Below are positions 33,954 to 53,418 of a DNA stretch of 59,682 nt, piece by piece. The stretch is from a virus. Its lineage: Duplodnaviria; Caudoviricetes. The first letter of the stretch is position 1. Every line of letters begins with the position of its first letter. A program made the translations under genes and the position numbers. Below the pieces are notes generated by a model that saw only the letters and a list, made by a program, of their open reading frames with translations, ran no database searches and was not told the DNA's origin. Location of the stretch: IMG/VR virus record IMGVR_UViG_3300033412_000015, positions 1-59,682 of that record; one strand, 5' to 3'.

Positions 33954-33980
33954 TAAAGTTATTCCACCAGTTGCCGATAG
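33954..33980 (+). promoter_or_regulatory. Sigma-28 (FliA)-type promoter
   Basis: TAAAGTTA-N11-GCCGATAG before the first early gene. Confidence 0.85.
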
Positions 33981-34027
33981 AATTAAAAACGCGGCAATGG
34001 TGCTAGCGTAAGAAAAGGGGGTTTAAA

Positions 34028-34393
34028 ATGAACAGCAGATACGAAGCTAAAGCGAGTGTATTGTATCATTATAAAATAGCAATGCCGAAACTGCATCTGC
34101 CGCGGCAAATTTGGCTGAAGTATAGTAAGCACGCTCTTAAGGCGGCGAATGAGGACGGATACGGCGCTATCGTGTTGCCTGCAATGATTGATACGCAGGC
34201 AAGCCTGCTAGTTGAATATGAGAAAAGAGATGGGCGACCTTATAAACTACTTTTTCGTATGAATTATTCGCCTGAATGTGATTTATTGATAGCAATCGGC
34301 GAAGGTGGTATTGTTCTTACCGTTTGGTTGAACTGTAAGAGTGATAAGCACGTGACGCTTGATTCTTCAAGGTATCAGAAAAAAGTTGCGTAG
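34028..34393 (+). CDS. Early protein, possible BECR/DUF4258-like fold
   Basis: YSKHA...IVLTVWLN..D.H.TLD motif. Confidence 0.6.
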   Translation: MNSRYEAKASVLYHYKIAMPKLHLPRQIWLKYSKHALKAANEDGYGAIVLPAMIDTQASLLVEYEKRDGRPYKLLFRMNYSPECDLLIAIGEGGIVLTVWLNCKSDKHVTLDSSRYQKKVA

Positions 34394-34398
34394 GGGTC

Positions 34399-34425
34399 TA
34401 AAGTTTTCGGCCCAGTTGCCGATAC
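34399..34425 (+). promoter_or_regulatory. Sigma-28-type promoter
   Basis: TAAAGTTT-N11-GCCGATAC, intergenic. Confidence 0.85.
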
Positions 34426-34469
34426 CTTAAATGTGTTTAGTTCTTAACTTTTAACAGGGGGTTTTATTT

Positions 34470-35087
34470 ATGAAAACAATTATCGAAGCAATTAAATCAC
34501 AAGACGCTAAGGCGCTTACTACACTGTTTTTCAAGGGTTTTAAATATAAGATTAAATCGCAGTCATTCGTTGCCTCTAATAATCGTTTAGACCTTAATTT
34601 TATGGAAGCTTGCAGCTACGATTGGTGGTCCTATTTTAAAGAAATTGATGGCCTATACATTTTTAATAATCACCGGTATAGTCCGACTACGGGTAAGCAT
34701 CAAAGTAACATGCTGAACTTGCTTAATCGATTAGGCGTTTATCCTACCGTTTACATTAATACTCGCGAAAACATGCATAGTTTCACCTTAGTCGACGTGC
34801 TAAACACTTTAACAGCTCAACGCAAGGACCTGTTAACTCAATTGCATGCTTGTAAGCGGCCAGTTTCTAAGAAACGTGATTTTCTTTTAAGTCAAATCGA
34901 GGACGTTGAAGCTTACATCGATGAGGTTCAATTCAAATTAAATCACATGGTTGAGGTTGAACTTAACGGTGAAACGAATAAAATGACCGAGCGTGCTTAC
35001 GATGAGTGGACGCTACAATTGAGCACTGGCGATTTTCACGTTCATAAAGCTGTTTTCTTGTCTAAGAAATTAAAACAAATAGCATAA
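34470..35087 (+). CDS. Early hypothetical protein
   Basis: YSPTTGKHQ motif common in phage early proteins; coiled-coil tail. Confidence 0.7.
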   Translation: MKTIIEAIKSQDAKALTTLFFKGFKYKIKSQSFVASNNRLDLNFMEACSYDWWSYFKEIDGLYIFNNHRYSPTTGKHQSNMLNLLNRLGVYPTVYINTRENMHSFTLVDVLNTLTAQRKDLLTQLHACKRPVSKKRDFLLSQIEDVEAYIDEVQFKLNHMVEVELNGETNKMTERAYDEWTLQLSTGDFHVHKAVFLSKKLKQIA

Positions 35088-35099
35088 AGGGGGTTTAGT

Positions 35100-35333
35100 A
35101 TGAAGTCTTTAGGAAAAATTAAGCTAGTTCAACGTCTAAATGAAGAAGACTACGCAGTTGCAACAGAAAAACAAGGGATTGTTTATATTTCCAGCGAACC
35201 TATTCTTGCAAATTTATTCCGGTACCGCTTAGGTGTTTATGAGCCATGTGAGCAAATGCATCCTAATAGTCGAGCTGCTCTTAAGCGATATATTTTACGC
35301 GAAGGACTAACTAGTTTGTATCATTTAACTTAA
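35100..35333 (+). CDS. Hypothetical protein
   Basis: 77 aa, AGGGGG RBS. Confidence 0.7.
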   Translation: MKSLGKIKLVQRLNEEDYAVATEKQGIVYISSEPILANLFRYRLGVYEPCEQMHPNSRAALKRYILREGLTSLYHLT

Positions 35334-35351
35334 ATAAAGGGGGTTTTATTT

Positions 35352-35762
35352 ATGAACTTATTAACATCAACAATCGTCCTAATGAGCGCCGAGCGGCCGG
35401 AATTCGATACCTTGGACAACTTACATCGAACTATAGAACTGGAAAATCTTTTACTAGACGGCGAATTTCTTTATAATTACGCAACCGGGGTGTGGAAGGG
35501 GGCAACGGAGCATTCGTTTATCATTGCCTTAAAGCCGGACGGCAAGCAAACCGACCAAGTAGAATTCCTAGCTGGCCTTGCAAAGCAATTCAATCAAGAA
35601 GCCATACTAGTAGTTAGCACCGATAGGACGGCGCAACTGATTTATCCGGCAACTGGTGTGACGGAAAATCTATCCGGCCTATTTCAATCAATCACGGCGG
35701 AGCGGGCTGGTTTGCTCGACGCTTACACCGAATTCAAAGGGGGTTTTTATGCAGTCATTTAA
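35352..35762 (+). CDS. Putative S-adenosylmethionine lyase (T3 SAMase-like)
   Basis: MSAER...GVWKGATEHSFII...LAKQFNQEAILVV matches the SAM lyase pattern; early location. Confidence 0.65.
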   Translation: MNLLTSTIVLMSAERPEFDTLDNLHRTIELENLLLDGEFLYNYATGVWKGATEHSFIIALKPDGKQTDQVEFLAGLAKQFNQEAILVVSTDRTAQLIYPATGVTENLSGLFQSITAERAGLLDAYTEFKGGFYAVI

Positions 35763-35997
35763 CAGTTGGCCTATCATACAACTTTCAAACGGCGCAATTG
35801 TTGAAATCGTTGACGTGGGTGGCCAACATGACGACGACATTGAGTTTGCAGCTATTTACACGGCGAACGGCCTTGAGGTTGAGGACGGCAAGCTAATTGA
35901 CGAGATTTACAGAAATTATTCAGACAAGTTGTATCAAGAATGGTATGAAAATCGAATTGAAGAAAGTGATTTCTATTATAATGGGGAGGATTTCTAA
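35749..35997 (+). CDS. Acidic hypothetical protein
   Basis: 82 aa, D/E/Y-rich, AGGGGG RBS. Confidence 0.65.
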   Translation: MQSFNSWPIIQLSNGAIVEIVDVGGQHDDDIEFAAIYTANGLEVEDGKLIDEIYRNYSDKLYQEWYENRIEESDFYYNGEDF

Positions 35998-36269
35998 TGT
36001 CTAATTTTACATTTAATAAGAAACGTGAGTTCAAACGCAATCGACAAGTTCAGGTGGCCGAAACGCCACCAGTTCTGCCCGAGCTGGTGTTTAAGGAAGA
36101 AGTAAAACTTGTGCATGGCTTCCTGTTTCCTGTTAAGGTTTATCGGCCGGGAGTGAGCAGCCCCCGTGTTTACAAGGAAGCTAGGCCTATGGGTGAGAGT
36201 TCGGACGACGATTCCATTGCCTCCCTGTTTGCGGAAATTGCTGAAATGGAGTTAAATTTCTTTGCTTAA
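35997..36269 (+). CDS. Hypothetical protein
   Basis: 90 aa, GGAGG RBS. Confidence 0.65.
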   Translation: MSNFTFNKKREFKRNRQVQVAETPPVLPELVFKEEVKLVHGFLFPVKVYRPGVSSPRVYKEARPMGESSDDDSIASLFAEIAEMELNFFA

Positions 36270-36284
36270 ACTCGCAAAAAGCGT

Positions 36285-36311
36285 TTTAGTTTTTCCGAAT
36301 TCTGCCGATAA
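36285..36311 (+). promoter_or_regulatory. Sigma-28-type promoter (degenerate -35)
   Basis: TTTAGTTT-N11-GCCGATAA, intergenic; spacer nearly identical to that at 53388. Confidence 0.7.
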
Positions 36312-36333
36312 GTAAAAGGTAAGGAGATTTCAT

Positions 36334-36501
36334 ATGAGTTCATTAAATAGAAATTGTTCAGACCGGCAACTTTTAGTTTACCTCAAGACTTTTCGTTTCT
36401 TAATAGGCGCTGGAAGGTCAGAGAGTAAAGCATTAGCTGACATTGTGAGGTCGTTTTGCCTAACGGAAACAGACCGCGAGAAACTTATGGAGTTAATATG
36501 A
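36334..36501 (+). CDS. Hypothetical protein (55 aa)
   Basis: Not in the ORF track; TAAGGAG RBS, ATGA overlap with the next gene. Confidence 0.7.
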   Translation: MSSLNRNCSDRQLLVYLKTFRFLIGAGRSESKALADIVRSFCLTETDREKLMELI

Positions 36502-37010
36502 TTCAGGAAAGTACTATAATTCGTCTACCAGAAATACTAAGAAAGCACAAGCTCTGGATAGAAACAGAAGGTAAAGAAGGCGAATGTGCTGATTTGCGAG
36601 GAGCTTATTTAGAAGGAGTTAATCTGCGAGAGGCTAATCTGCACGGGGCTAATTTGTATAAAGCTTATCTAAAAGATGCTAACTTGCTAGGAGCCAATCT
36701 GAGTAGGGCTAATCTAAAAGGGGCCTATTTAATGGGAGCTAATCTGCATGCAGTTAATTTTGAAGGAGTTAACTTGCAAGGAGCTAGTCTACAAGGAGCT
36801 AATCTAAAGTATGCCGGCATCTTCTCTTTCCAGGCGGGCGTAGATTTCGGTTATTCATTTAACGGCAGGATTAAAATAGGCTGCCATGATTATCCAATAG
36901 AATACTGGTTAGAGAATTACAAACAGATAGGAAAAGCGGCAAAATATACTAAAGAAGAGATTAAGCTTTATGGTTCTATTATTAAATTCATAAGTAAGAA
37001 AGTTAATTAA
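36498..37010 (+). CDS. Pentapeptide-repeat protein
   Basis: Tandem A[DNY]Lxx repeats; HKLW...G...ADL N-cap; IKIGC C-terminal domain. Confidence 0.9.
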   Translation: MIQESTIIRLPEILRKHKLWIETEGKEGECADLRGAYLEGVNLREANLHGANLYKAYLKDANLLGANLSRANLKGAYLMGANLHAVNFEGVNLQGASLQGANLKYAGIFSFQAGVDFGYSFNGRIKIGCHDYPIEYWLENYKQIGKAAKYTKEEIKLYGSIIKFISKKVN

Positions 37011-37012
37011 CC

Positions 37013-37228
37013 ATGCAAACGCAAATCATAAATAACAATGAAGTACGGCAATTCTTCGACTACCTGACGACGCAGCGTAATCGTCTGATGCAAGACTGGT
37101 GGCTCCGTAATCGCGAGATTGGCCCTCTAGTTAATAACATACTGGACCTGCAGGAAGATATTTTGGCGAGGCCTACATTTTACGAGAGTGTGCCGGCGAG
37201 ATTGAAAGCATTGTATGAGCTCGTATGA
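37013..37228 (+). CDS. Hypothetical protein
   Basis: 71 aa, packed in operon. Confidence 0.6.
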   Translation: MQTQIINNNEVRQFFDYLTTQRNRLMQDWWLRNREIGPLVNNILDLQEDILARPTFYESVPARLKALYELV

Positions 37229-37538
37229 CCAATGGGTTAATCGCCTCTGTTACGAGTTGGCGAATGCTGCTCTTGCATCTCTTACGGATAAAGAGATTCT
37301 CGAAAGATGTCCGCATGATTATGGCGCAGAGCCTACAGTGGAACACCGTGAATACTTATGGGGTCAGTTCTTTCAGCACGCGGAAGCACTGGACCCCCTT
37401 GACCTCTGGGATGCCTACCACCGGTTTGTTATTAATAAAGAAGAGCTGCGTGTTCGTGAACCGAATTTCCGCATTATTAGTATCGGCGAGTTCTTTAAAC
37501 TTTTAGGAGACGGCGAAAATGAATCTAATGACAACTAA
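37215..37538 (+). CDS. Hypothetical protein
   Basis: 107 aa, packed in operon. Confidence 0.6.
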   Translation: MSSYDQWVNRLCYELANAALASLTDKEILERCPHDYGAEPTVEHREYLWGQFFQHAEALDPLDLWDAYHRFVINKEELRVREPNFRIISIGEFFKLLGDGENESNDN

Positions 37539-38271
37539 TGTTAACGGCTGGCAGCTTCCAATTATAAGTAGCCTCAACCAATTAATTGAACTCTCGGGCA
37601 ATTGGATTTGTCCTCAACAGAAGGACATTTATAGGGCCATTGAACTGGTACGGCCAGACACTTGTAAAGTGGTTATCCTAGGCCAAGACCCTTACCATAC
37701 TGTTGGCAAGGCAAATGGGTTAGCATTCGGTCTGCATCGGAATTACAAGGGAAGCATCCGTTATTCTTCATTTGGTAATATTATTGGCGAGGTAGAAAGG
37801 TGGGCCCGTGACCAGAGCATACCTCAATGTTACACTGACGTAAGCCTTTCTATTGATACTTCTCTTGAGAGCTGGGCGCGGCAAGGCGTTCTTCTTTTAA
37901 ATACCCGTCTAACTGTCGAGCCGGGCAAACCGCTCTCTCATTCAGGCTTCGGTTGGGAACTCGTTGTTGCAAGCATACTTGCGCAGGTTCCAATAGATGC
38001 AGTGTGGCTCTTGTGGGGGGCTCAGGCCCGCATTATCGGCGAAGAATTCTCGCGGCCCGACCTCACGCTAACGGCTTCGCATCCCAGTAAGTACAGTGCA
38101 TCTCGACGTACTGGCACCAAGGTACCCGCATTCAATGGCTGTAATTGTTTTACGGCGGCTAATAAACTTCTCGTTAATTTAGGAAAGGAACCAATTCAAT
38201 GGGCAACGTTATCCCCTTCAGGCGCTCCACTGCTTATGGAAAGCAACTTGACTTTATCCTCTGGTTATTAA
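37519..38271 (+). CDS. ung: Uracil-DNA glycosylase, family 1
   Basis: VVILGQDPYH, ANGLAF, WARQGVLLLNT, LWG, SHPS motifs. Confidence 0.93.
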   Translation: MNLMTTNVNGWQLPIISSLNQLIELSGNWICPQQKDIYRAIELVRPDTCKVVILGQDPYHTVGKANGLAFGLHRNYKGSIRYSSFGNIIGEVERWARDQSIPQCYTDVSLSIDTSLESWARQGVLLLNTRLTVEPGKPLSHSGFGWELVVASILAQVPIDAVWLLWGAQARIIGEEFSRPDLTLTASHPSKYSASRRTGTKVPAFNGCNCFTAANKLLVNLGKEPIQWATLSPSGAPLLMESNLTLSSGY

Positions 38272-38381
38272 AGAATGAACCTATAATCTTTAGGGAGGCA
38301 ATGGAAAACAACTATGAACTACTGGGAACAGCGCGAGAAAATGCGCCAGAAAATCAAAGAGATGAACAGTGCAGTAATTAG
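38199..38381 (+). CDS. Hypothetical protein
   Basis: 60 aa, AAGGA RBS, overlaps the ung 3' end. Confidence 0.5.
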   Translation: MGNVIPFRRSTAYGKQLDFILWLLKNEPIIFREAMENNYELLGTARENAPENQRDEQCSN

Positions 38382-38628
38382 ACGGTTGGGACTTAGGAAA
38401 GTTGTTCCAATTCCTCCTAAAGTTTTCCCGAAATATACCGATAAGATAGTAGAGGGTAAATTATTAACGTTCCCTGTAAAGGAACAGAAAGTGAGTGAAT
38501 CGAATGAGAGCATCAGCAGTACTAACAGCAACCCTAGTAGTTGGCCTCTTCCTACAGACGGTGGGATTCTCGGCCCCAGCGAAAGTTCCAGCACCAGCAC
38601 CGAAAGTGATACTGAAGATAAATCCTAA
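38314..38628 (+). CDS. Hypothetical protein
   Basis: 104 aa; Ser-rich tail overlaps the next gene. Confidence 0.45.
   Translation: MNYWEQREKMRQKIKEMNSAVIRRLGLRKVVPIPPKVFPKYTDKIVEGKLLTFPVKEQKVSESNESISSTNSNPSSWPLPTDGGILGPSESSSTSTESDTEDKS
38418..38444 (+). promoter_or_regulatory. Sigma-28-type promoter
   Basis: TAAAGTTT-N11-ACCGATAA upstream of the exported ClpP-like gene. Confidence 0.75.
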
Positions 38629-39268
38629 GCGCACAGTAGAAGTTATTGACATTGTAGATAGCGACATTCTCGGCGAGGCACAGAAACTTAGCAATTTCGC
38701 GGCCGATAGTAAGGACCCTATCTACGTACTTCTTAATAGCCCAGGCGGCATTATTATCTTCGGCCAGTCTTTCATTGATGCAATGGAACAGGCACGGGCG
38801 AAAGGCATTGAAATTACTTGTGTAACTGGTGTGCTGGCCGCAAGCATGGCCTTCAACATGCTAGCCCATTGCGACAATCGTTATGCTCTCCGTCACAGTA
38901 AGCTGTTGTTTCACCCGGCGCGTATAGGAAGTCGCGAACCTCTATCGGCAGACATGTTGATGGAAGCCTATAAGGACCTGGTGAGAATTGAAAAATATTC
39001 TATCCCAGAAATACAACAGATGATGGGCATGAGTGATGAACAATTTATTTACCACTATAAGCGAGAAACAATGTGGGATGCAGAACAATTAATTGACGCA
39101 TCACCTAAACCTTGGTTGAAACTGGTTGATGACGTTGAAGGCACGAAGAAGTTGTTTACAATCAGCCGTCCTCGTCCATTCTTTCTGTTCGGTCAGTTGT
39201 TTTCAATAAAACCTTATGCGCTTATCCACATCATGCGTAACTTCGACCACCAGTTATTGGGGCACTGA
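38495..39268 (+). CDS. ClpP-fold serine protease with N-terminal signal peptide
   Basis: PIYVLLNSPGG, AASMA (Ser), LLFH (His); MRASAVLTATLVVGLFLQTVGFSA leader. Confidence 0.75.
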   Translation: MNRMRASAVLTATLVVGLFLQTVGFSAPAKVPAPAPKVILKINPKRTVEVIDIVDSDILGEAQKLSNFAADSKDPIYVLLNSPGGIIIFGQSFIDAMEQARAKGIEITCVTGVLAASMAFNMLAHCDNRYALRHSKLLFHPARIGSREPLSADMLMEAYKDLVRIEKYSIPEIQQMMGMSDEQFIYHYKRETMWDAEQLIDASPKPWLKLVDDVEGTKKLFTISRPRPFFLFGQLFSIKPYALIHIMRNFDHQLLGH

Positions 39269-39271
39269 GCA

Positions 39272-39580
39272 ATGACACACAAGGTAAAGACCTGGCTACG
39301 TTTCCAGGATGTCACAGACTTCGTATATGCAAAGCAAGTGATAGCCCTAACTGGGCTGTCCTTCGATGAGTTCATTAATTACAGTATCATGAAAGAAATG
39401 GGCCGAGTAATAGCTAAAGCAAAAAAGGAACAGGAAAATGCGAGGTCTACTAATTCAGAGCCTGAAGGAAATATTGTCGACCAGGGGAACAGTCAAAATG
39501 CTGATAGTGCAGGACTGGAAAACGCGGCGAGTAGTGTGGATACGGATACCCCAGGAGCTAGCGAATTACGACCAGAATGA
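39272..39580 (+). CDS. Possible ribbon-helix-helix DNA-binding protein
   Basis: KTWLRF...TGLSFDEFINYSI pattern with a disordered tail. Confidence 0.45.
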   Translation: MTHKVKTWLRFQDVTDFVYAKQVIALTGLSFDEFINYSIMKEMGRVIAKAKKEQENARSTNSEPEGNIVDQGNSQNADSAGLENAASSVDTDTPGASELRPE

Positions 39581-39640
39581 ATCTAGGTGGCGTTACATGG
39601 GATGTGTAGACTAGTATAACAACTAACAGGAGAACTGACG

Positions 39641-40006
39641 GTGAGCGGCAAGAAATTTGATAACGGGAAACCAGATTTATCCCTCTGTCCAAGCATTGCA
39701 TTAAAAGAGATGGCGTTTGCCTTAATGTTAGGTGAACAGAAATACGGTCGTTACAATTACTGCGGTGGCTTAGAGGCCAGTAGACTTATTGGAGCAGCTC
39801 TCCGTCACCTGACAGCTTGGAATGACGGCGAGGACAACGACCCTGAAAGTGGCCACTCGCATTTAGGAAATGCATTAGCATGCATTGCAATGATACTAAG
39901 GACGGCAGAACTGGGCACGCTTAAGGACAATAGATTCCAGAACAGAATTGTACCTGTATCTCTCTGCGCACCTACACCCTTTCAGAAGGAAGTTAACAAT
40001 GGTTAG
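39641..40006 (+). CDS. DUF5664-type dATP/dGTP diphosphohydrolase domain protein
   Basis: GKKFDNGKPDLSL...GEQKYGRYNY...AALRHL.AW..GED.DPESG.SHL. Confidence 0.85.
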   Translation: MSGKKFDNGKPDLSLCPSIALKEMAFALMLGEQKYGRYNYCGGLEASRLIGAALRHLTAWNDGEDNDPESGHSHLGNALACIAMILRTAELGTLKDNRFQNRIVPVSLCAPTPFQKEVNNG

Positions 40007-40973
40007 TATTAAGGACCTATTTGAGCGGGGCAGAGCTGCATTAGTTGCGTCTGGTAAGGAAACGGAGGCAGGCAAGAAGGGTATTCTTCGTGCAGGCAAT
40101 ACAGGCATTGTTGCATTGGATGGTACTATCATTGGCAAGTGTGCCCGTCTCACCTATTTGCGCATGAAAGGCATCACCGTTGAAGAGCACGATGCTAACC
40201 GCGAACTGATGTTTGATGGGGGCCGAAGCAATGAAGATAGTTGGATTGAAGTTCTTAAGGCAGCTAACGAACCAGGTATCATTTTCCTCCGCGAGGAAGA
40301 GATTCCCATTAGCTGGACAACTTCTAATGGCACGCTTGTAACTGGCCGGCCTGATATCGTCCTTGTTAAGGAAGGCGTGGATGCAAATGGTTCGCCTGTT
40401 CGAGAACCTGTTAAGGGCATTGAGTTAAAACAAGTCAGTAGTATCTGGACCGCTCGCGACGTGGCATTCAATCTCAAGCCGAAGATGCCACACCTCCTAC
40501 AGGCGGCTCATTACAGTTGGCAATTAAAGGTTCCCTTTGAACTTTGGTATACCAGTAGGACGGACTTCGCAATAGGCAGTGGGTGGGAACAGAAACAATT
40601 TCCAAAGGATAGCGCAATCATTGACTACAATCCAAATGGCGGCGCGAAGAAAGTGCTGCCATTCATGCAAGGATTCGAGCTAGGTTGGAACGACAAGCAG
40701 CAATTAATGTACAGACCTGTCGGGTCTGGTGATAGTGCATGGAAGTACACTCTCATTACAATTGACGGCATACGCCAATACTACGAGCTAGTATCTACCA
40801 TGGAGACTACAGATAGATTGCCGCCTTGCCCCAAGAACATTGAGGCTGACGGCAAGGTTGGAGGTTATAGCATCTGTGATTACTGCCCACTGAAGAGTGT
40901 CTGCAAGGGTAAATCCTACGGTGGGTTACAGGAATGGTTAAAGGCAGTGGCGGAATTGACCGATAAGAAATAA
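39999..40973 (+). CDS. Cas4-like PD-(D/E)XK exonuclease
   Basis: N-terminal CARL, GRPD...ELK, Q...Y, C-terminal CDYCPLKSVC (Fe-S-type cysteines). Confidence 0.75.
   Translation: MVSIKDLFERGRAALVASGKETEAGKKGILRAGNTGIVALDGTIIGKCARLTYLRMKGITVEEHDANRELMFDGGRSNEDSWIEVLKAANEPGIIFLREEEIPISWTTSNGTLVTGRPDIVLVKEGVDANGSPVREPVKGIELKQVSSIWTARDVAFNLKPKMPHLLQAAHYSWQLKVPFELWYTSRTDFAIGSGWEQKQFPKDSAIIDYNPNGGAKKVLPFMQGFELGWNDKQQLMYRPVGSGDSAWKYTLITIDGIRQYYELVSTMETTDRLPPCPKNIEADGKVGGYSICDYCPLKSVCKGKSYGGLQEWLKAVAELTDKK
40939..40966 (+). promoter_or_regulatory. Possible sigma-28-type promoter
   Basis: TAAAGGCA-N12-ACCGATAA at the gene end, upstream of 41034 and polA. Confidence 0.55.
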
Positions 40974-41033
40974 TGAAAGGCTAGTTGCATGGGGCAGCTA
41001 GTGTTCAGAGTCTAGAATATAGGAGTTTTATTT

Positions 41034-41456
41034 ATGGAAAATCAATCACACGAGACAGCAGCGGCACCCTCATTGGTGCTATCTTTCGCAGTCCCAACAG
41101 ACGGCAAAGATGAAAAGGGTAATGTTATTTACGGTAAGTACACAAAGATTGGTGAACTCGAAGCAGTAACAACCTCAGGCCGTTCATACTTAACCACGAA
41201 AGATATCGAAGGCAACACCTACTACGTTAATAGCGTAAAGGAAGCTGGCCCAAAGAGTCCAAAGAAAGTCTTAAGTGTACTGCGCAATGGTGCAGAAGAA
41301 TCAGAATTGTTGAGTGGTCTATTTGAGCGTCCCTATTCAGATGGCACGAAGAGTCTAAAAGGAAAGAGCCGTGACAATGGAATCAAGTATGCAATCTTCA
41401 TCAACAATCCTTCATCCAGTGTTAAGCGAGCTCCTGCAACAGCAGCAGATTTATAA
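41034..41456 (+). CDS. Possible ssDNA-binding protein (tandem DUF736/PC4-like beta modules)
   Basis: Two modules KIGEL....SGRSYL and LSGLF....DGTKSL; lies between exonuclease and polymerase. Confidence 0.35.
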   Translation: MENQSHETAAAPSLVLSFAVPTDGKDEKGNVIYGKYTKIGELEAVTTSGRSYLTTKDIEGNTYYVNSVKEAGPKSPKKVLSVLRNGAEESELLSGLFERPYSDGTKSLKGKSRDNGIKYAIFINNPSSSVKRAPATAADL

Positions 41457-41563
41457 TCTCGCATCCGACTCTTGGACGTTTGGCAGCTATTGGTTGTTTA
41501 ATGCGGAATGTATTCGCCTGAATCAATTCAAAGGTTTATCAATGCAACGAGGGAGTACGGAAC

Positions 41564-43954
41564 TTGCGACAGGAAAAAGACCAATCTTTCAGCCTCCTCA
41601 GTCCCGTACAAGTAGCGGCTCGAACCGACAAGCTTTCTGTCCTCCCTCCAATAAACGACCCCAGCACTGACCTATCCTTTATCTTCACTGAAAGACCTTC
41701 ACCTTCGGCCATCATGGCTATCGACTTCGAAACCCGGGGAGACTACACCTCTCCGGGCTCCACCCCTGTCGGGGTAGGGCTGTCTGACGAGCGGGGCAGT
41801 TGGTACATTGATTTCAAGGAATCGCGGCCCGATACCTACGAGTGGATAATGCGCCGTCTAGCGGCCGATAGGGTCCCCTTGATTGGACACAACTTGTTCT
41901 TCGATGCAGCTTGGCCCTTGAGAGACCTTGGACTGTGGCTCAATTGGCGGCACTGCACCTACGCATTGTACAAGCTCCTTGCAACGGAGGGATGGACGGG
42001 CCAGAAGTGGGGCCTTAAGAATGCTCAGGTGGACCTACTCGGTTGGCCTGAAAGTAACGAGGCCGAGCTAGATAGTTGGCTCGTTAACAATGGATTCGGC
42101 AAGCGGCAGCGTTCTTCCACGACGGGTGAGGAAATCCTGCGCCCAGTTAAGGGCGAGATGTGGCGTGCTCCCAAGGAAATATTGGGCCGTTACTGCGCCC
42201 TCGACGCCGATAGTACCTTCCTCCTTTACACTTCAGTACTCCTGCCAGCACTGGAAAGATTCAATGCCCTTAAAATTTACTGCAGCGAACCCTACATTAA
42301 TTACGTAAGATTACTTATTGAGCAGAAGTTATCCGGTCTCCTCGTGGACCGTAAGAAACTGAAGAGATATAACGGCCGGCTCCTTAAAGAAATTGAACAG
42401 GCGAAAAACGCAATCCTATCGGCTCCTGAAATACAGCCCTTTATGACGGCGCGTTTGAATACAGTGCTCGGCTCGCATCAGGCGAAGGAACCAGAGAAAT
42501 ACCTTAAACGCAAGATTGGCGCCGAACCCAAGAAGATTAATAAGGACGGCAGCACTAGCAAGCAATGGCAAGCCTGGTGGGATAGGCAGCAATTGCCCCC
42601 AACACTCAGCAAGAACTGGGAGAAATGGAACGAGCGCAAGTTAGAGATAGAAGGTAATCCCACTGCTTGCTTTAATCTCAACAGCCAGCTTCAGAAGAAA
42701 GCTCTCTTTTACGAACACCTGTGTAAGGATTGGAAGGAAGGCACTGATGATAGGGGCGAGCAGTTCTTCAGTATAACCTTCAATGGGCGGACAGTGGAGC
42801 TGCCTGCAACGGACAGTGGGCAGCCTCCGCTGGATAAGAAGGCAATGAAAATCTTTGGACCTGTAGGTAAACTATTCCTGAATTATCAGGACCTCATTAA
42901 GGAGCAACAATATGTACTTTCCTGTCTTATGGTCTTGGGTGAAGACTCCATTCTACATCCCAGTTTTCGTGTGCCTGGAACTCTTACTGGTCGTCTCGCG
43001 GGTGGCGGAACGACTGTCAAGAAAGAACACCCAGATACTGGAAAGCCTGCGGAATTCACTATTAACATCCAACAGATACCAAAGAGCGCTGGCTACCTCA
43101 GCTGTTTCATCCCAAGGCCCGGTTGCATCTGGGTTGACTGCGACCATGCTGCGCTCGAACAGGTTGTACTTGCAGAACTTTCCAGGGACAGCACTCTCGA
43201 TAAATTATATGGGCCGGGCGCTCAACCCCACGATGTATACCTCTTTAATGGAGCAAGCCTCCCAGGTATCGGTGAACGCATTAGGGCAGCAGGCTACTCT
43301 ACAGAAAGTCCGACGGCCAGCAGCACCAAAAGGGCCAAAGAAGTCTGCAAGAAAGAGCGGCAAGTTGCGAAAATCGTAACGCTGGGCAGCTCCTACGGAA
43401 TGGGGGCACCTAAGTTGAAGCGTACTCTCATGCTCGAAGGTATTGATATTACACTGCAGGAGGCCCGCGATATTCACAAGGCGTATTGGCAATTGTACCA
43501 GGGCGTCAAGGTATACGAGAAGGAACTCCTAAGGCAGTACGACAACAACAAGCAGTGGGTTCTCAATGGAATCGGCAGACCCTTAGGTATCTACGAGCCC
43601 TACAAGAGAGACATTGTTAATCGTGTGGTGCAAAGTACTGGACACGATGTGCATCTCTTTTATATACTAATAACTGCTGACCTCCTCAATCAGGCAGGCA
43701 TCAATTGGCGGCCCATCATCATTGACTTCCATGACCAGATGATTGTAGAGGTTGCTGAAAAGGATGCCCCTAGGGTGAAAGAAATAATGGGACAGGAAGC
43801 TTACAGTAGGCTTAACGCCTTGCTAAACGGTAGATTGAAACTGAAGGGCGACGCACAGATTGTAAAGAATATGGCAGAGGCGAAGTGTGCGAAAGAGGAC
43901 ATTGAACAGTATCTTAAGGACCTGGGTGTCCTGGGGGATGGCGGAGATGAGTAA
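41564..43954 (+). CDS. polA: Family A DNA polymerase with 3'-5' exonuclease
   Basis: ExoI DFET, ExoII HNLFFD, ExoIII YCALD; TLTGRL, NIQQIP, motif A DHAALE, motif B RQVAKIVTLGSSYG, motif C HDQ; start uncertain. Confidence 0.92.
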   Translation: MRQEKDQSFSLLSPVQVAARTDKLSVLPPINDPSTDLSFIFTERPSPSAIMAIDFETRGDYTSPGSTPVGVGLSDERGSWYIDFKESRPDTYEWIMRRLAADRVPLIGHNLFFDAAWPLRDLGLWLNWRHCTYALYKLLATEGWTGQKWGLKNAQVDLLGWPESNEAELDSWLVNNGFGKRQRSSTTGEEILRPVKGEMWRAPKEILGRYCALDADSTFLLYTSVLLPALERFNALKIYCSEPYINYVRLLIEQKLSGLLVDRKKLKRYNGRLLKEIEQAKNAILSAPEIQPFMTARLNTVLGSHQAKEPEKYLKRKIGAEPKKINKDGSTSKQWQAWWDRQQLPPTLSKNWEKWNERKLEIEGNPTACFNLNSQLQKKALFYEHLCKDWKEGTDDRGEQFFSITFNGRTVELPATDSGQPPLDKKAMKIFGPVGKLFLNYQDLIKEQQYVLSCLMVLGEDSILHPSFRVPGTLTGRLAGGGTTVKKEHPDTGKPAEFTINIQQIPKSAGYLSCFIPRPGCIWVDCDHAALEQVVLAELSRDSTLDKLYGPGAQPHDVYLFNGASLPGIGERIRAAGYSTESPTASSTKRAKEVCKKERQVAKIVTLGSSYGMGAPKLKRTLMLEGIDITLQEARDIHKAYWQLYQGVKVYEKELLRQYDNNKQWVLNGIGRPLGIYEPYKRDIVNRVVQSTGHDVHLFYILITADLLNQAGINWRPIIIDFHDQMIVEVAEKDAPRVKEIMGQEAYSRLNALLNGRLKLKGDAQIVKNMAEAKCAKEDIEQYLKDLGVLGDGGDE

Positions 43955-44518: not shown

Positions 44519-44709
44519 CCCGGGCAGAAATGATTGAAGAACTGGCAGCAATGCTATGCACACAGGTGGACTGGGACAGTGACTACCCTGCTCTCCGTTT
44601 CTTCTATTACCCACACGGCGAGTTTGTATTCGGTGAAATGGAACCAGTAGTTTCCACAATACTGCTAAAGCTCCGTGAGACTCTTGCCGATAAGAATGAT
44701 GAGGAGTGA
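44515..44709 (+). CDS. Hypothetical protein
   Basis: ATGA-coupled to the previous gene. Confidence 0.6.
   Translation: MTRAEMIEELAAMLCTQVDWDSDYPALRFFYYPHGEFVFGEMEPVVSTILLKLRETLADKNDEE
44666..44693 (+). promoter_or_regulatory. Sigma-28-type promoter
   Basis: TAAAGCTC-N12-GCCGATAA just before the second ClpP-like gene. Confidence 0.65.
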
Positions 44710-45278
44710 GAATTATGGCCAGACGAGCAACTGAAAAGATAGAACTGTTCTTTAATCAGGGTCTTGACGTGGATGCCCGCATACTGAAGTGCTTCTCCTA
44801 TAGCGATAGTTCAGGTGACGAGGCAGGCGTAGATTGGCAGCTGGCCGACACTATAATTACTGGCCTTTCTGTGCTGGAAACACTGGACGCAGAGAAGCCA
44901 ATAACCTTACTAATTAATAATCACGGCGGCGAAGATGACCACTGCCGCGCCATCATGGCCGCTATCCGTAACTGCAAGGCGCCTGTACATGGGCTCGTAT
45001 TGGGGCGTGCAGAAAGTGCAGCTGCTTGGATATTCCAATCCTGCGACCATAGGATTATGGACCCTTTATCTAATTTGATGTTCCACATGGGAAGCGGCAC
45101 GAAGAACCGACATAGTAAACACATCGATGACGTCTTTACGGAAATCCTCTTGCGGCGCCTAAGGGGTAAGGACCCCTCGTATCCAAAGGCTAAACTGGTA
45201 CGACAGTTGCACGAGGATTGGTACGTGTATCCCACGCAAGCTCTAGAGTTAGGACTTGCTGACGAAATACTAGAATAG
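44706..45278 (+). CDS. ClpP-like protease subunit
   Basis: PITLLINNHGG, GRAESAA (Ser), LMFH (His), QALELGLADEI. Confidence 0.85.
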   Translation: MRIMARRATEKIELFFNQGLDVDARILKCFSYSDSSGDEAGVDWQLADTIITGLSVLETLDAEKPITLLINNHGGEDDHCRAIMAAIRNCKAPVHGLVLGRAESAAAWIFQSCDHRIMDPLSNLMFHMGSGTKNRHSKHIDDVFTEILLRRLRGKDPSYPKAKLVRQLHEDWYVYPTQALELGLADEILE

Positions 45279-47302: not shown

Positions 47303-47723
47303 ACAATTGTACCTCGCCGACTGTGCAGAACTTGAGGACGCCGCCGAATGGATAGGCATTAACCTTTCACGGTGGGGCCGCATATCGGTCTTGCAAACAA
47401 AGGAGAAGTATGGAACTGCCCGTGTTTATTGTAAGTTTGGTCATAACGAACTGTCTGAGTTGTTCTATCCTTTTTGCGATTATCGTCCGAGGCTTGGATG
47501 GTTCGGGAGAATAGAATGGTTGCCTCGCATCTATAATTGGCTCCTTGTTCCCTATCAGCAGCGCCTGTATAGAATTATTTATGATAGGGCACTAAAGAAA
47601 TGGGGCCACCTTGCCGATGAGATACTATCTGGAGCCGACGAACCGTTGCTCCTTAGGAGGGTTTATGAGAAGTATTCTATTGATTGTAAGTGGCGCTATA
47701 CTGACGGCAGCAAGTTATGGTAA
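47289..47723 (+). CDS. Hypothetical protein (QxKEK[FY]GxxRxY family)
   Basis: LQTKEKYGTARVY; true start may be TTG 47307. Confidence 0.6.
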   Translation: MIRSRQLYLADCAELEDAAEWIGINLSRWGRISVLQTKEKYGTARVYCKFGHNELSELFYPFCDYRPRLGWFGRIEWLPRIYNWLLVPYQQRLYRIIYDRALKKWGHLADEILSGADEPLLLRRVYEKYSIDCKWRYTDGSKLW

Positions 47724-48968: not shown

Positions 48969-48980
48969 GAGATAAGAAAA

Positions 48981-49277: not shown

Positions 49278-49299
49278 CCTATACTATAGGAGGCGTAAA

Positions 49300-49512: not shown

Positions 49513-50977
49513 CATTCTCCAGTATTTTCCCTCGAACAAGAAGCCCCGCCGCGTGCAGGCCGAAGCTCTGGAGCAGCTCGCCGATGGATGGGCCGATAGC
49601 AACCTGATAGTTGTAAACCTCCCGGTTGCAAGTGGGAAAAGTGCTATTGCCCACACTATTGCACACTGGCAGTATGCCACACTAAAGAACAGAAGTGCTA
49701 TCTTAACGCCCACAAATATACTAGTTGAGCAGTACCTAAAGGACTTTCCTGACTTGCATAGGGTAAAGAGGATTGACCAGTATTACTGTTCATTACATAG
49801 TGAACAGACTGGCCCGCCGGTCAACTGCGCCAAGGCCCGTAGTTGGTCAGCCAGTAAGAAGCTCTGCCGCGATTGCCCCTACACAAAGGCGCTGATTAAG
49901 GCACAGAAGTGGGCACCTTCAACAATTCTTAATTACTATAGTTACTTGAGTGTCAGGCCGGACGTGCCTGTAATGATTATAGATGAAGCTCACAACTTGA
50001 TAGGCGCAATTAGGGAGCAATCGGCTAGCAAGCTGTGGCAACATTCTTTGGGTTACCCCAATAACACAGGGTCATATAATGATTTATACCAATGGGCGCT
50101 ATCCGTCAAGGACACTTTTTCAACTCCCCGTAAGAACAAGCTAATTCAGCGGGTGATTGAAGAGCTTGAGAACGGTAGAACCAGGTACTTGTTTCAGCGC
50201 ACAAGGGAAAAGTACAAGGGTGAGGAAGAGGACGTTATAAAGCTATTGCCAGTAGATGTTAGGGATGAAGCGCCTATCTTCTGGCCAAGCACCGTACAGA
50301 AGATTATCCTAATGAGTGCCACTATCAGTACCAAAGATATTGAACAACTGGGCTTAAATAAGCTTCGTTCTCTTTTCATTAATAGCGGCAGTCCTATTGC
50401 ACCAGAACGGCGACCTTTTCACCTGCACACTAGGTTGCACAATCTTGCGCATTCTAGCGTTGATGCTTCTTTGCCTGCTCTCGCGGAGGATATCAGGATT
50501 CTCCTGCGCACTAATCCTGAGAAAGGATTTATACACGCTACCTACGGAATGGCAGAGAAACTACGGCCCTTTCTTCAGGAGGAACCTCGGTTGCTTTGGC
50601 ATGATAGAGAAAATAAGATGGCAAGATACGAAGAGTTTCGTCGTGCCACGCCTGATACTGGGCGGGTGATGGTAGCTTCTGGCCTGTATGAAGGCGTCGA
50701 CTTACCACAAGATTTAGGGCGCTGGCAGGTAATTACGAAGGTACCCTGGCCCTCACTGGCCGAACAAGCAATTGTCTACCAAATGGAGAAAGACCCAGAA
50801 TGGTATGCAAATGAAGCAGTTAAAATTGTGCTTCAAGCTTACGGGCGCATCTGCCGAACAGTAGATGATTATGGGCGGACGGTAATGCTAGATAATAGCT
50901 TCAACCGTCTATACGCGGGATATTCGCACTTGTTTCCAGAATGGTTCAAAGAAGCCTTAAATAGGAGTGCAGTATGA
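49499..50977 (+). CDS. SF2 DinG/XPD-like helicase
   Basis: Q-motif PRRVQ, PVASGKS, DEAH, MSAT, EGVD, QAYGRICR; Cys cluster. Confidence 0.88.
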   Translation: MSNTSILQYFPSNKKPRRVQAEALEQLADGWADSNLIVVNLPVASGKSAIAHTIAHWQYATLKNRSAILTPTNILVEQYLKDFPDLHRVKRIDQYYCSLHSEQTGPPVNCAKARSWSASKKLCRDCPYTKALIKAQKWAPSTILNYYSYLSVRPDVPVMIIDEAHNLIGAIREQSASKLWQHSLGYPNNTGSYNDLYQWALSVKDTFSTPRKNKLIQRVIEELENGRTRYLFQRTREKYKGEEEDVIKLLPVDVRDEAPIFWPSTVQKIILMSATISTKDIEQLGLNKLRSLFINSGSPIAPERRPFHLHTRLHNLAHSSVDASLPALAEDIRILLRTNPEKGFIHATYGMAEKLRPFLQEEPRLLWHDRENKMARYEEFRRATPDTGRVMVASGLYEGVDLPQDLGRWQVITKVPWPSLAEQAIVYQMEKDPEWYANEAVKIVLQAYGRICRTVDDYGRTVMLDNSFNRLYAGYSHLFPEWFKEALNRSAV

Positions 50978-51468
50978 GCGATAATACTGAAGACAAGAAG
51001 AAATGGGATTTCAGGGACCAGCTAGTGGTGGGTAGCCGCGGCGAAGAATTGTTCCTACAACATTACCACAGTCCTCTGGTAATCTACCCCGAGCACAGAG
51101 CGGATTTCAAGAGAGTTAGCGACGGTGCCTTGGTAGAACTGAAAAGCGATACCTACAACATTGATAAGACACCCTACTTCTTCATGGAACGCTGGTCTGA
51201 TTTCCATCAGAAGAAACCAGGAGGGCCTTGGCAGTCCCGTGAGAAGAGAGTAGACGTGTTTTGCTACCTATTCGTGCGGCATAATATCTACTACGAATTC
51301 AACGATTTGAAGGTTCTCACTAAAGAATTAGATAAACTTACCGATAAGCAAGGTATGGTGTTCGTAAAGAATAAGGGCTGGGTAACGGCGGGTTTTAAAG
51401 TTCTTCGAGAAGCATTAAAAGGACTGTACACCAGATACGAGTTTAAGAATGAAGTTAACAAAAAGTGA
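50974..51468 (+). CDS. PD-(D/E)XK nuclease-like protein
   Basis: G..GE...ADF...VELKSD...FFME...PG pattern. Confidence 0.6.
   Translation: MSDNTEDKKKWDFRDQLVVGSRGEELFLQHYHSPLVIYPEHRADFKRVSDGALVELKSDTYNIDKTPYFFMERWSDFHQKKPGGPWQSREKRVDVFCYLFVRHNIYYEFNDLKVLTKELDKLTDKQGMVFVKNKGWVTAGFKVLREALKGLYTRYEFKNEVNKK
51321..51347 (+). promoter_or_regulatory. Sigma-28-type promoter
   Basis: TAAAGAAT-N11-ACCGATAA inside 50974..51468. Confidence 0.6.
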
Positions 51469-51706
51469 ATCACTGTTCTTGCTATCAATCCTGGCCGTTG
51501 TCGGCATCATAGGATTGATTGCATTATTTGCAGCCAATAGTCCACGACCTTCCCGCAGGGACGATGGTAGCTGCCCTATTGAAATCTGGCCCTGCTGCGT
51601 TTATCCGGAGAAGTGTAAGGACCTGTGGGACTGGAACTGGAATTGGAGGCAGTTGTTTACACGCGCAGTAACGAACGAAGAGAGGAGAGAGCAGTGGCAT
51701 TTATAA
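51449..51706 (+). CDS. Small membrane-anchored Cys/Trp-rich protein
   Basis: N-terminal TM, then CPIEIWPCC...C. Confidence 0.55.
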   Translation: MKLTKSESLFLLSILAVVGIIGLIALFAANSPRPSRRDDGSCPIEIWPCCVYPEKCKDLWDWNWNWRQLFTRAVTNEERREQWHL

Positions 51707-51999
51707 GCATAGATAGACAGTGCGTAGAGTGCGGCGAGATTGAATGGGCTGTCCTCATCGAACGGGAAGAGCGCGATAACTTGTTTATCTGTCCTGCCTG
51801 TGGTAAAATTGCAATGAAGCGGGCCCTCCTCAGTGCGCCAGCTCAGATGAATGTTGCACTGCCCGATGGTGTAAAACGTAAAGGTTTCAGTCAAATGGTC
51901 GAAGCGGCGAAATTAGAAGCAGCCTCCTATGATTTGCCTCCTGAGAAACGGGGAGATTTCAATAAGGCCATTCACGACTTAAAGAAGGTGAAATCATGA
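51694..51999 (+). CDS. FmdB-like zinc-ribbon protein
   Basis: CVECG...CPACG...KRALLSAP; GGAG before GTG 51694. Confidence 0.65.
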   Translation: MAFISIDRQCVECGEIEWAVLIEREERDNLFICPACGKIAMKRALLSAPAQMNVALPDGVKRKGFSQMVEAAKLEAASYDLPPEKRGDFNKAIHDLKKVKS

Positions 52000-52175
52000 A
52001 GTTTAAATTTATGAATAGGGTTAGAGTTACTGAAGGCTTCTACGAGGGATTCACTGGAAAGATTGACGACTACTACGGCGAGCCCTACAATCTTCCTTTG
52101 TATGTTGTTCGGTTGGATGGAGTAGACAGAACTCTCACCTTTTCTGAAGAACAATTAGAAAAGATAGAAAGGTAG
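51996..52175 (+). CDS. KOW/SH3-like protein (59 aa)
   Basis: Not in the ORF track; RVRVTEGFYEGFTGKI...YVVRLD. Confidence 0.7.
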   Translation: MKFKFMNRVRVTEGFYEGFTGKIDDYYGEPYNLPLYVVRLDGVDRTLTFSEEQLEKIER

Positions 52176-52199
52176 GATACCTATACGTGCGCCATCTGT

Positions 52200-52394
52200 T
52201 TGCAATGGGAAATGTATAAGGATAAGGGCGAAGTCCGCAAGATGATTGAACGCGCCCGTAAGAAGGACCCTGAACTGGTTATTGATGAAGAACACCTGCA
52301 GGCAGTTGAACGGGCTTTTCTTAAGACAGGATATGAGTCCTTTGATGGACTGGAACTTGATTGGGAAACAAATTTCATGTTTAGGAGTTTTTAG
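52200..52394 (+). CDS. Hypothetical protein
   Basis: 64 aa; start unclear, in frame with the upstream KOW ORF. Confidence 0.5.
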   Translation: MQWEMYKDKGEVRKMIERARKKDPELVIDEEHLQAVERAFLKTGYESFDGLELDWETNFMFRSF

Positions 52395-52395
52395 T

Positions 52396-52620
52396 ATGAG
52401 TATAGAGATTATAACGAAAAGACTGGATGTCATGCAGAAGGAAATTCACCAAGGACTTTCTATTGTTAACCGCGAGTTCGACGAGTTCGAGCAAGTGATT
52501 GAGCACATCATGAAAGCTCTCAAGATTTTTGACGTCAGGATAACGGAGCTAGAAACACTGGCAAAAACTGCTAACGCGCCCAAACCTATCCGTGAAGACG
52601 ATACAGGCAAGGAGTTATAA
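52396..52620 (+). CDS. Coiled-coil hypothetical protein
   Basis: AGGAG RBS before ATG 52396. Confidence 0.65.
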   Translation: MSIEIITKRLDVMQKEIHQGLSIVNREFDEFEQVIEHIMKALKIFDVRITELETLAKTANAPKPIREDDTGKEL

Positions 52621-52621
52621 G

Positions 52622-52801
52622 ATGATATGCTATAATAAGACGACAGGCTATAATAAGAAGACACAGGTATACTATCACATTATAACAGAAGGCATCTACC
52701 TGTGGGACGGTGTATTTATCTTCAACGACCGCATTGATTCTTTTCACCCCAATGCAGATACTCTACAAATGCTAGGTTACGTTAAGATAGGAGACCTTTA
52801 A
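52622..52801 (+). CDS. Hypothetical protein
   Basis: AAGGAG RBS; ends IGDL. Confidence 0.6.
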   Translation: MICYNKTTGYNKKTQVYYHIITEGIYLWDGVFIFNDRIDSFHPNADTLQMLGYVKIGDL

Positions 52802-52802
52802 T

Positions 52803-53009
52803 ATGCCCATATACGACTATAAATGCGCCCATTGCGACGCGCAAGCTACTATTGTACGGTCCGTCAGTGAAATGGAAACACCACCTGAGCCTTCGGAATT
52901 TAAGGAGATTGTCTGCACCTCTAAAGATGGGCACCAGTGGAAGCGTGAGCTAGGTACTTTCAGCCTGGTAAGGGGTAAGAACTGGTCAGGGTCGAAAGGC
53001 AACTGGTAG
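52803..53009 (+). CDS. FmdB-family zinc-ribbon protein
   Basis: MPIYDYKCAHC...GKNW. Confidence 0.75.
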   Translation: MPIYDYKCAHCDAQATIVRSVSEMETPPEPSEFKEIVCTSKDGHQWKRELGTFSLVRGKNWSGSKGNW

Positions 53010-53015
53010 CAACTT

Positions 53016-53210
53016 ATGGATAAGACAACAGTAAATGTTACACAACAGGTGTACCTGTGGCCAGAATCAGACACCTTATTCATAGTTACTACAGCACCTC
53101 ATTGGTGGATGGCCCTTGTAGAATTTGATGACATTTCACTGCCGCCGGTCCCTTTACATGAGATTGCAGAGTTTAAAAAGAATGGGACTATATTCGTGGG
53201 GGACCTTTAG
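53016..53210 (+). CDS. Hypothetical protein
   Basis: Ends VGDL, resembles 52622. Confidence 0.6.
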   Translation: MDKTTVNVTQQVYLWPESDTLFIVTTAPHWWMALVEFDDISLPPVPLHEIAEFKKNGTIFVGDL

Positions 53211-53211
53211 T

Positions 53212-53418
53212 GTGACCAGTAAGGAAATAAAACAATTCTTGAAAGGGTACGACAGTGACCTTATTTTCATGTTTACCAGGTTAGGCCTGTTAGAAGAGGT
53301 TGCTGCTACGGCCAGAGACGTCGTTGAATTTGCTAGTGAATCTTATGTAAAGAAATTACAGAAAGCATTAGATGCACTGGAGGACACTAAAGTTTTTCCG
53401 ATTTCTGCCGATAAGTAG
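53212..53418 (+). CDS. Hypothetical protein
   Basis: GTG start directly after the previous stop. Confidence 0.55.
   Translation: MTSKEIKQFLKGYDSDLIFMFTRLGLLEEVAATARDVVEFASESYVKKLQKALDALEDTKVFPISADK
53388..53414 (+). promoter_or_regulatory. Perfect-consensus sigma-28 promoter
   Basis: TAAAGTTT-N11-GCCGATAA, followed by AGGAGGAGG RBS. Confidence 0.9.

Follow-up and report, generated by a model that had tools for sequence, protein, structure and literature searches.

Sigma-28-type promoter sites along the takeover, replication and lysis arm of an uncultured phage genome

A complete virus record of 59,682 bases from the IMG/VR collection (IMGVR_UViG_3300033412_000015; this whole stretch of DNA is called the window) was analyzed for promoters resembling those of the flagellar sigma factor, sigma-28 (FliA in Escherichia coli, SigD in Bacillus subtilis). 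The genome has a 127-bp terminal direct repeat and consists of two divergent arms. The virion arm lies on the minus strand, running from 32932 down to 1 and wrapping to 56652, and the arm on the plus strand carries genes for host takeover, replication and lysis. Ten sites with both boxes of the sigma-28 consensus were found, all on the coding strand of the plus arm and co-oriented with its genes. We estimate a probability of about 60% that all ten act as sigma-28-class promoters and that a FliA-family sigma factor of the host reads them. The wider proposition, that some host FliA-family sigma factor reads them, a non-flagellar variant included, is likely in our judgment.

Sigma-28-type sites on the plus arm

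An earlier note on this DNA had listed nine sites, and all nine were recovered at their positions and with their spacers, the two octamers being separated by 11 nt at 33954, 34399, 36285, 38418, 51321 and 53388 and by 12 nt at 40939, 44666 and 45848. With a tenth site at 47593, the gap is 11 nt in six cases and 12 nt in four (Table 1). The pattern TAAAG...CCGATA is exact in seven of the ten sites and has one or two mismatches in the other three, and the -35 element is TAAAG in nine.

These numbers are far above those expected by chance. Exact matches to TAAAG-N15/16-CCGATA occurred seven times on the plus strand and once on the minus strand, a total of 8 compared with a mean of 0.057 (maximum 2) in 300 first-order Markov resamples searched on both strands. 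When one mismatch was allowed, 11 matches were found on the plus strand and one on the minus strand, where the resamples averaged 1.94. Among the 11, those at 28720 and 57750 are antisense to virion genes and fall below the threshold of the position matrix described here. To avoid circularity this matrix was built from relatives only (59 sites from 12 related loci, with zero sites from the window). It returned ten matches of 18.6-32.7 bits in the window, all on the plus strand between 33954 and 53388, whereas 100 resamples gave a mean of 0.48 matches of at least 14 bits (maximum 3), and the both-strand matrix scan against shuffled sequence which the earlier note had proposed thus came out in favor of the motif. 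Weak matches on the minus strand were limited to 12197 (15.6 bits) and 42443 (14.5 bits). The claim that the structural arm carries no such site is therefore correct overall, the weak match at 12197 being the exception. De novo dyad counting returned no motif, as repeats and base composition swamped the counts.

With respect to position, 22-102 nt separate the end of each -10 element from the nearest following start codon that is plausible and preceded by a Shine-Dalgarno sequence, in agreement with the statement that the sites lie shortly upstream of genes, and the first two genes of the plus arm each have a site of their own. The best site, at 53388, heads a block encoding a collagen-like lipoprotein, an SLT transglycosylase and a lysozyme.

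The consensus of E. coli sigma-28 promoters is TAAAGTTT-N11-GCCGATAA (PMC2859248), and the window sites agree with it in both boxes and in spacing, as had been claimed. Their -35 and -10 elements follow TAAA(GTTT) and (G)CCGATA(A), and the matrix sites of the relatives give CTAAAGTTT for the upstream box and tgCCGATAAG for the downstream box. When compared with the class 3 promoters of flagellar and chemotaxis genes, which FliA recognizes in E. coli and Salmonella and SigD in B. subtilis, the phage sites have the same boxes, the same 11- or 12-nt gap, the same orientation and the same placement upstream of genes, and the site at 53388 matches the consensus exactly. They differ in that they precede takeover, replication and lysis genes rather than motility genes, and in that their dependence on FliA is a prediction.

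Conservation among relatives and separation from sigma-70 promoters

The family A DNA polymerase of the window has many homologues on contigs of ~59-62 kb. A single-sequence search for the locus in IMG/VR gave no match, and the query that took its place, an alignment built from 23 of the 120 homologues listed, retrieved 23 IMG/VR loci. Nineteen of these are members of the same clade (29-50% polymerase identity); four (L020-L023; 20-22% identity) are unrelated PolA genes and were left out of all clade counts, and one clade locus represented by a 193-aa fragment (L018) was left out of the tree.

Conservation in related phage contigs, the second check that the earlier note had proposed, was clear: with at most one mismatch, the 19 clade loci contained 64 sites in the orientation of the polymerase gene and 5 in the opposite one. 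Nine loci (L001, L002, L003, L005, L009, L011, L012, L014 and L019) had four to eight sites each, and every one of them had a site 500-760 bp upstream of the polymerase gene, equivalent to that at 40939 in the window. In five complete relatives a loosened pattern (YMAAG-N15/16-CCGAWR) gave 50 matches in all, compared with 11 for a reversed control pattern; 37 of the 50 were on the polymerase strand, and matches of the TAAAGTTT type were mostly in the polymerase arm. Seven of the eight near-consensus sigma-70 promoters in the same five records were on the opposite strand. Judged from these sequences, the layout of two arms and two sigma classes is conserved over 36-50% polymerase identity. G+C content within the clade spans 33-58%, and the clade therefore probably has many hosts.

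In the window itself, the pattern TTGACA-N17-TATAMT occurred six times compared with 0.01 expected, five times on the minus strand and once on the plus strand (Table 1). No sigma-70-like match of at least 9 of 12 positions between 32000 and 51999 overlapped any of the nine sigma-28-type sites located there, and a search of the whole window for the exact sigma-70 consensus gave none overlapping 53388. By sequence, then, the two promoter types are kept apart, with sigma-70 promoters assigned to the virion genes and the sigma-28 type to the takeover, replication and lysis genes.

Not all members of the clade carry the motif. Four loci lacked it and had instead TTGACW-N16-18-TAnnWT promoters, often TG-extended, on the polymerase strand (plus and minus counts of 6/1 in L004, 3/0 in L006, 3/0 in L007 and 4/0 in L015), and in three others (L010, L016 and L017) neither promoter type was clear. 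On a maximum-likelihood tree of 20 polymerases the distribution of the sigma-28 state requires four changes, at least three of them forced by starred branches; when the labels were shuffled 500 times, so few changes sufficed in only 12 cases. Repeated changes of type on the same arm would be expected if promoter type followed the transcription machinery of the host. A tblastn comparison of 55 window proteins with the loci showed that the motif-bearing relatives share the ClpP-like protein, a 341-aa protein, the polymerase, the RuvC-like protein and the helicase, all of which are also present in motif-free relatives. The variable first genes of the plus arm, which are themselves behind sigma-28-type promoters, were not conserved at all.

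The same consensus was also found beyond the clade. A strict 18-base form, CTAAAGTTT-N11-GCCGATAAG, occurred in 74 IMG/VR stretches, where chance would give only a few by a rough estimate (the size of the collection is not exactly known). In 28 of the 74, at least three sites were present on one strand within 15 kb or less, and in 19 of these 28 the fetched stretch encoded nothing detectably similar to any of the 55 window proteins. Ten such other records were searched whole, and one (G011) had a full sigma gene.

Table 1. Positions of promoters and principal genes in the window and of three promoters in relatives
Feature	Position	Strand	Score	Context
Sigma-28-type, exact TAAAG-N15-CCGATA	33954..33979	+	24.8 bits	48 nt before ATG 34028, first plus-arm gene
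Sigma-28-type, exact, intergenic	34399..34424	+	22.9 bits	45 nt before ATG 34470
Sigma-28-type, degenerate -35 TTTAG	36285..36310	+	19.2 bits	23 nt before ATG 36334
Sigma-28-type, exact TAAAGTTT octamer	38418..38443	+	31.0 bits	before ClpP-like gene 38495-39268
Sigma-28-type, N16	40939..40965	+	18.6 bits	overlaps last codons of 39948-40973
Sigma-28-type, N16	44666..44692	+	26.3 bits	22 nt before ATG 44715, second ClpP-like gene
Sigma-28-type, N16, -10 GGCGATAA	45848..45874	+	18.8 bits	48 nt before ATG 45923
Sigma-28-type, N16, -10 GCCGATGA	47593..47619	+	22.6 bits	45 nt before ATG 47665; missing from earlier note
Sigma-28-type	51321..51346	+	27.0 bits	in 3' part of gene 50974-51468; 102 nt before start 51449
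Sigma-28-type, best site, exact TAAAGTTT-N11-GCCGATAA	53388..53413	+	32.7 bits	24 nt before ATG 53438
Sigma-70, perfect TTGACA-N17-TATAAT with TG extension	32966..32994	+		head of plus arm; followed by ~1 kb without an open reading frame of at least 50 aa
Sigma-70, TTGACA-N17-TATACT	32904..32932	-		first of virion arm
Sigma-70, perfect	32028..32056	-		virion arm
Sigma-70, perfect	26542..26570	-		virion arm, upstream of terminase region
Sigma-70, perfect	22114..22142	-		virion arm, between portal and next virion gene
Sigma-70, perfect	6416..6444	-		virion arm; leader resembles that after 32966
Plus arm served by sigma-28-type promoters	34028-56279	+		host-takeover, replication and lysis genes
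Family A DNA polymerase	41564-43954	+		plus arm
Terminase large subunit	24626-26080	-		virion arm
Portal	22165-24213	-		virion arm
Head-decoration-like protein	15789-17456	-		virion arm
1723-aa protein		-		virion arm
Promoter with C6...GGG spacer	G003:C1:40148-40177			relative
Promoter with C6...GGG spacer	G004:C1:56656-56685			relative
Promoter with C6...GGG spacer	G005:C1:4230-4259			relative

Predicted reader of the sites and competing explanations

In the mechanism that we propose, the ten sites would be read without any phage protein, by RNA polymerase of the host together with a FliA-family (group 3) sigma factor that the host itself encodes. Transcription would start at ten points along the plus arm; the best site (53388) precedes the lysis block, and 38418 and 44666 precede the two ClpP-like genes. 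Host RNA polymerase carrying sigma-70 would transcribe the virion arm from its five strong promoters and, in addition, a non-coding leader from 32966. We infer the identity of the reader, and with it the link to motility, from the form and placement of the sites. In enterics and Bacillus, sigma-28 is free only after the basal body is complete and the anti-sigma factor FlgM has been exported. Since free sigma-28 is restricted to the flagellated state, strong expression of the plus arm would be tied to a motile host, and a non-motile cell would give it at most basal read-through from the sigma-70 promoter at 32966.

Several considerations weigh against this reading. It presupposes a host with a fliA gene and flagella. 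A perfect sigma-70 promoter at 32966 lies ~1 kb upstream of the first sigma-28-type site (33954), and terminator-like sites are not enriched in the window (14 compared with 18.8 in shuffles); together these mean that read-through could express the plus arm without sigma-28. More than 20 open reading frames of the plus arm have no family assignment and could hide an unrecognizable sigma factor or sigma appropriator. Module exchange is another possible source of the patchy distribution of the motif on the tree. As a rule only a small part of the RNA polymerase in a cell carries sigma-28, and this part is under tight control, so that a lytic phage relying on it would take a risk.

The earlier note had gone further, proposing that the phage starts infection with sigma-28 and that these sites serve an early or replication arm. 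What stands of the first proposal is a genuine, co-oriented and conserved set of sigma-28-type sites; infection need not start with sigma-28, because the arm has at its head a sigma-70 promoter that is perfect and carries an extended -10 element. The further suggestion of a host encountered only while swimming is a conjecture. Replication genes are indeed among those served, but the arm is not only an early one, as the ClpP-like genes, the gene before the polymerase and the lipoprotein, transglycosylase and lysozyme block have such sites too. The ordering of early and late expression is not visible in the sequence.

Evidence on the host was limited. Five sequencing runs contained 33900-43899, all labelled soil metagenome, with two possible sources; none was an RNA run, and they give no evidence on expression. 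Soil is a habitat of Bdellovibrio-like predators. No close relative of 33000-54000 was found among cultured phages by megablast, identity to cultured phages was at most 27% for the polymerase and 22-24% for the terminase large subunit, and a candidate capsid gene (20852-22006) had no match; with none of them close, no host can be inferred from cultured phages. A scan of genome contigs gave one relative, a 59.4-kb contig binned with a metagenome-assembled genome of Saprospiraceae. This contig uses Shine-Dalgarno sites and is without the sigma-28 motif, and the assembled genome had no match over the FliA cut-off, a combination which fits a host-sigma reading, although binning is weak evidence either way. 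The nearest lysozyme clusters were annotated "commonest Pseudomonadota", which is a lead only.

The soil origin bears on a first alternative, which we consider rather unlikely, namely that the reader is a host sigma factor of the FliA/WhiG/SigF family acting as a broad life-stage regulator, so that the phage would be tied to a life stage and not to swimming. TTAAG-N16-CCGATA is found at 92 of 140 attack-phase promoters of Bdellovibrio bacteriovorus (PMC3627812), in line with the statement of the earlier note that FliA-type promoters dominate this phase, and many of the genes driven are non-flagellar. The -10 element CCGATA is shared with the window, where both N15 and N16 spacings occur, N16 in four of the ten sites. 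The -35 element, however, is TAAAG in nine of the ten window sites and not TTAAG, nothing ties the phage to Bdellovibrio, and the base composition of the clade suggests many hosts.

A second alternative, which is unlikely, is that the sites are read by a diverged phage sigma factor or a factor that retargets RNA polymerase, perhaps made from a consensus sigma-70 promoter. Searches with five sigma hidden Markov models (Sigma70_r2, PF04542; r4, PF04545; r4_2, PF08281; TIGR02937; TIGR02479) gave 0 matches in six frames of the window at E values up to 10, and Sigma70 regions 2 and 4 were absent from all five complete motif-bearing relatives. Neither multisubunit RNA polymerase (PF00623) nor FlgM (PF04316) was detected in the window. 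A search for T7-type RNA polymerase (PF00940) also gave no match in the window, but its control matched in no control genome and the search is uninformative; the claim that the phage has no sigma factor or RNA polymerase of its own therefore holds for the five sigma models and PF00623. The many unassigned open reading frames leave room for such a factor, as do the genes beside the divergent sigma-70 promoters (32588-32857, 32053-32586 and 31369-32022), which have no assignment, and the record outside the clade with a full sigma gene provides a precedent. One of these genes encodes a 177-aa protein (P0121, 32053-32586), for which a model was built from 25 of its 38 homologues (predicted local distance difference test score 75.1) and was all-helical. 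Foldseek found no match to this model in the PDB at E <=0.001, and its best VIA-align Z score was 4.9, below the level that is meaningful for helical proteins. Weaker VIA-align rows included the NV1 small terminase (Z 4.8, root-mean-square deviation 2.4, 47 aligned) and a SigI6 chain (Z 4.1, residues 12-78). The modelled fold is compatible with a small terminase and provides no support for a sigma factor.

Searches of the PDB by sequence with the products of 39948-40973, 50974-51468 and 34470-35087 gave nothing useful. The gene at 50974-51468 was tried as one that might track the motif and was rejected, being present also in motif-free L024, L007 and L017; a likeness of its N-terminus to a nuclease motif was noticed only on visual inspection. 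No unassigned protein of the plus arm was restricted to motif-bearing relatives, and because the first two genes of the arm are themselves behind such promoters, a phage factor could not start them. A reader of both boxes at canonical spacing should moreover be a recognizable FliA homologue, which makes a FliA-family sigma factor of the host the most economical reader.

Quite unlikely, in our view, is a third possibility, that the sigma-28-type sites are accessory, the plus arm being expressed mainly by read-through from 32966 and the sites adding expression in motile cells. The extended -10 promoter at the head of the arm and the lack of terminator enrichment speak for it, and so do parallels in relatives: L002 has a like promoter ahead of the arm (position 726), and G002 probably has one at 673. 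On the other hand, ten promoters over 20 kb that are conserved in relatives with 36-53% polymerase identity would be costly if dispensable, and 32966 is separated from the first gene by ~1 kb of non-coding sequence, in which there are a hairpin and a terminator-like site (33618-33636). That the sites are not promoters at all but bipartite binding sites for a phage protein, or chance or duplicated sequence, is very improbable: 36285 and 53388 share nearly their whole spacer, which suggests duplication, but the spacers of the other eight are unrelated, as they would not be in copies of a single cassette. The counts also greatly exceed those expected by chance, and orientation, distance to the start codon and near-identity to a known class fit promoters.

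Reading by a host FliA-family sigma factor, the explanation we prefer, can be set beside known ways in which phages divide or gate their transcription. In the textbook programme host sigma-70 acts first and a phage factor later. The phage-encoded sigma cascades of SPO1 (gp28 and gp33/34) and T4 (gp55) likewise separate classes of phage genes by promoter type; here, in contrast, neither the window nor any of the five complete relatives has a sigma gene that could be detected, and the promoter type is that of the host. The closest functional parallel in print appears to be the "lytic deferment" described (PMC9437464) for CtrA sites in pili- and flagellotropic phages of Alphaproteobacteria, in which phage genes are likewise wired to a host regulator that reports a motile or infectable state. 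CtrA is a response regulator acting at otherwise sigma-70 promoters, whereas in the window sigma specificity itself would be changed, and across a whole arm. Sites of the type read by a motility-linked host sigma factor are present and conserved here, and control by that factor is a prediction only. No description of phage genes behind FliA/SigD-type promoters was found in the open-access full texts searched.

A host alternative-sigma promoter class would here serve as the organizing principle of a phage arm, the division of labor being apparently between two host sigma factors, one of which reports motility. If FliA reads the sites, replication and lysis would be coupled to the swimming state of the host, which would bear on flagellotropic infection, pseudolysogeny, lytic deferment and the cost of motility under phage pressure, and the promoter switches among relatives would amount to a natural experiment on how phages are re-tuned to new hosts. 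A far broader picture can be offered only tentatively, and we think it somewhat doubtful as a whole: a widespread uncultured family of lytic phages of ~60 kb that places takeover, replication and lysis on the flagellar sigma factor of the host and the virion on sigma-70, that is productive only in motile cells and deferred in sessile ones, that has swapped promoter sets repeatedly with changes of host, and whose device recurs in many unrelated IMG/VR phages as a general, undescribed form of host-state sensing. Reading of the sites by FliA can be tested without the host of the phage, as their sequences agree with the consensus known from E. coli and Bacillus.

Neighboring genes and other features of the genome

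The plus arm begins with small genes that vary among relatives, including those for a SAM lyase and a pentapeptide-repeat protein, and also encodes UDG-like, MazZ-like and RuvC-like proteins, two ClpP-like proteins and a helicase; the collagen-like lipoprotein, SLT transglycosylase and phage lysozyme lie at its end. The two ClpP-fold proteins (38495-39268 and 44706-45278) are each encoded directly behind a sigma-28-type promoter, and the first of them is kept in 18 of the 19 clade loci and in L024. A protein with an N-terminal domain like that of the MazZ dATP/dGTP diphosphohydrolase (39641-40006) is followed by the 341-aa protein (39948-40973), which is kept in all relatives, belongs to no Pfam family and has a weak PHROG match to a Cas4-like family. 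A 2-aminoadenine genome is not indicated, since no PurZ-like adenylosuccinate synthetase was seen.

Downstream of the site at 40939 there is a hairpin in the 5' untranslated region (40966-41033), followed by a small gene (41034-41456) which precedes the DNA polymerase. The hairpin is kept in L005, L009, L011, L012, L014, L004 and L016, whichever promoter type precedes it, and may be a translational operator, by analogy with those of single-strand-binding protein genes. Within the polymerase gene, an exact match to the sigma-28-type pattern lies antisense at 42417-42443 (14.5 bits with its flanks); relatives do not conserve this match, which probably arose by chance. In some relatives (L009, L011, L012, L014, L015 and L017) the polymerase match is split or extends over ~3 kb instead of 2.2 kb, which suggests an inserted intein, intron or homing endonuclease.

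The two arms are separated by ~1.1 kb (32933-34027) without an open reading frame of at least 50 aa. This region contains many AGCT/TTAGCT-like repeats and matches no Rfam family. Repeat-rich stretches are also present in relatives, with AGCT..CTTAAG words occurring more than 50 times in L019 and CAGTGTGAGTG repeats in L004. Similar leaders follow two of the sigma-70 promoters, at 32966-33050 on the plus strand and 6444-6365 on the minus strand; both read TATAATCGGATTA.AACT..CCC.CCACCC.TATATAT and include a CCCC/GGGG hairpin and AT-rich repetitive DNA. These leaders may be non-coding RNAs or may mark origins. Near-consensus sigma-70 promoters in three relatives have a C6...GGG inverted repeat within an 18-nt spacer (TTGACA..CCCCCC....GGG.TATAAT), which could be an operator or a structured element.

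A check for RNA genes gave no Rfam family at the gathering score and no tRNA. The tetranucleotide GATC is absent from 1-59555, compared with ~229 occurrences expected from base composition. All four 6-base palindromes containing GATC are likewise absent, and TCCGGA occurs once compared with 12 expected. The absence of GATC points to strong restriction avoidance or to a GATC-directed system of the host.

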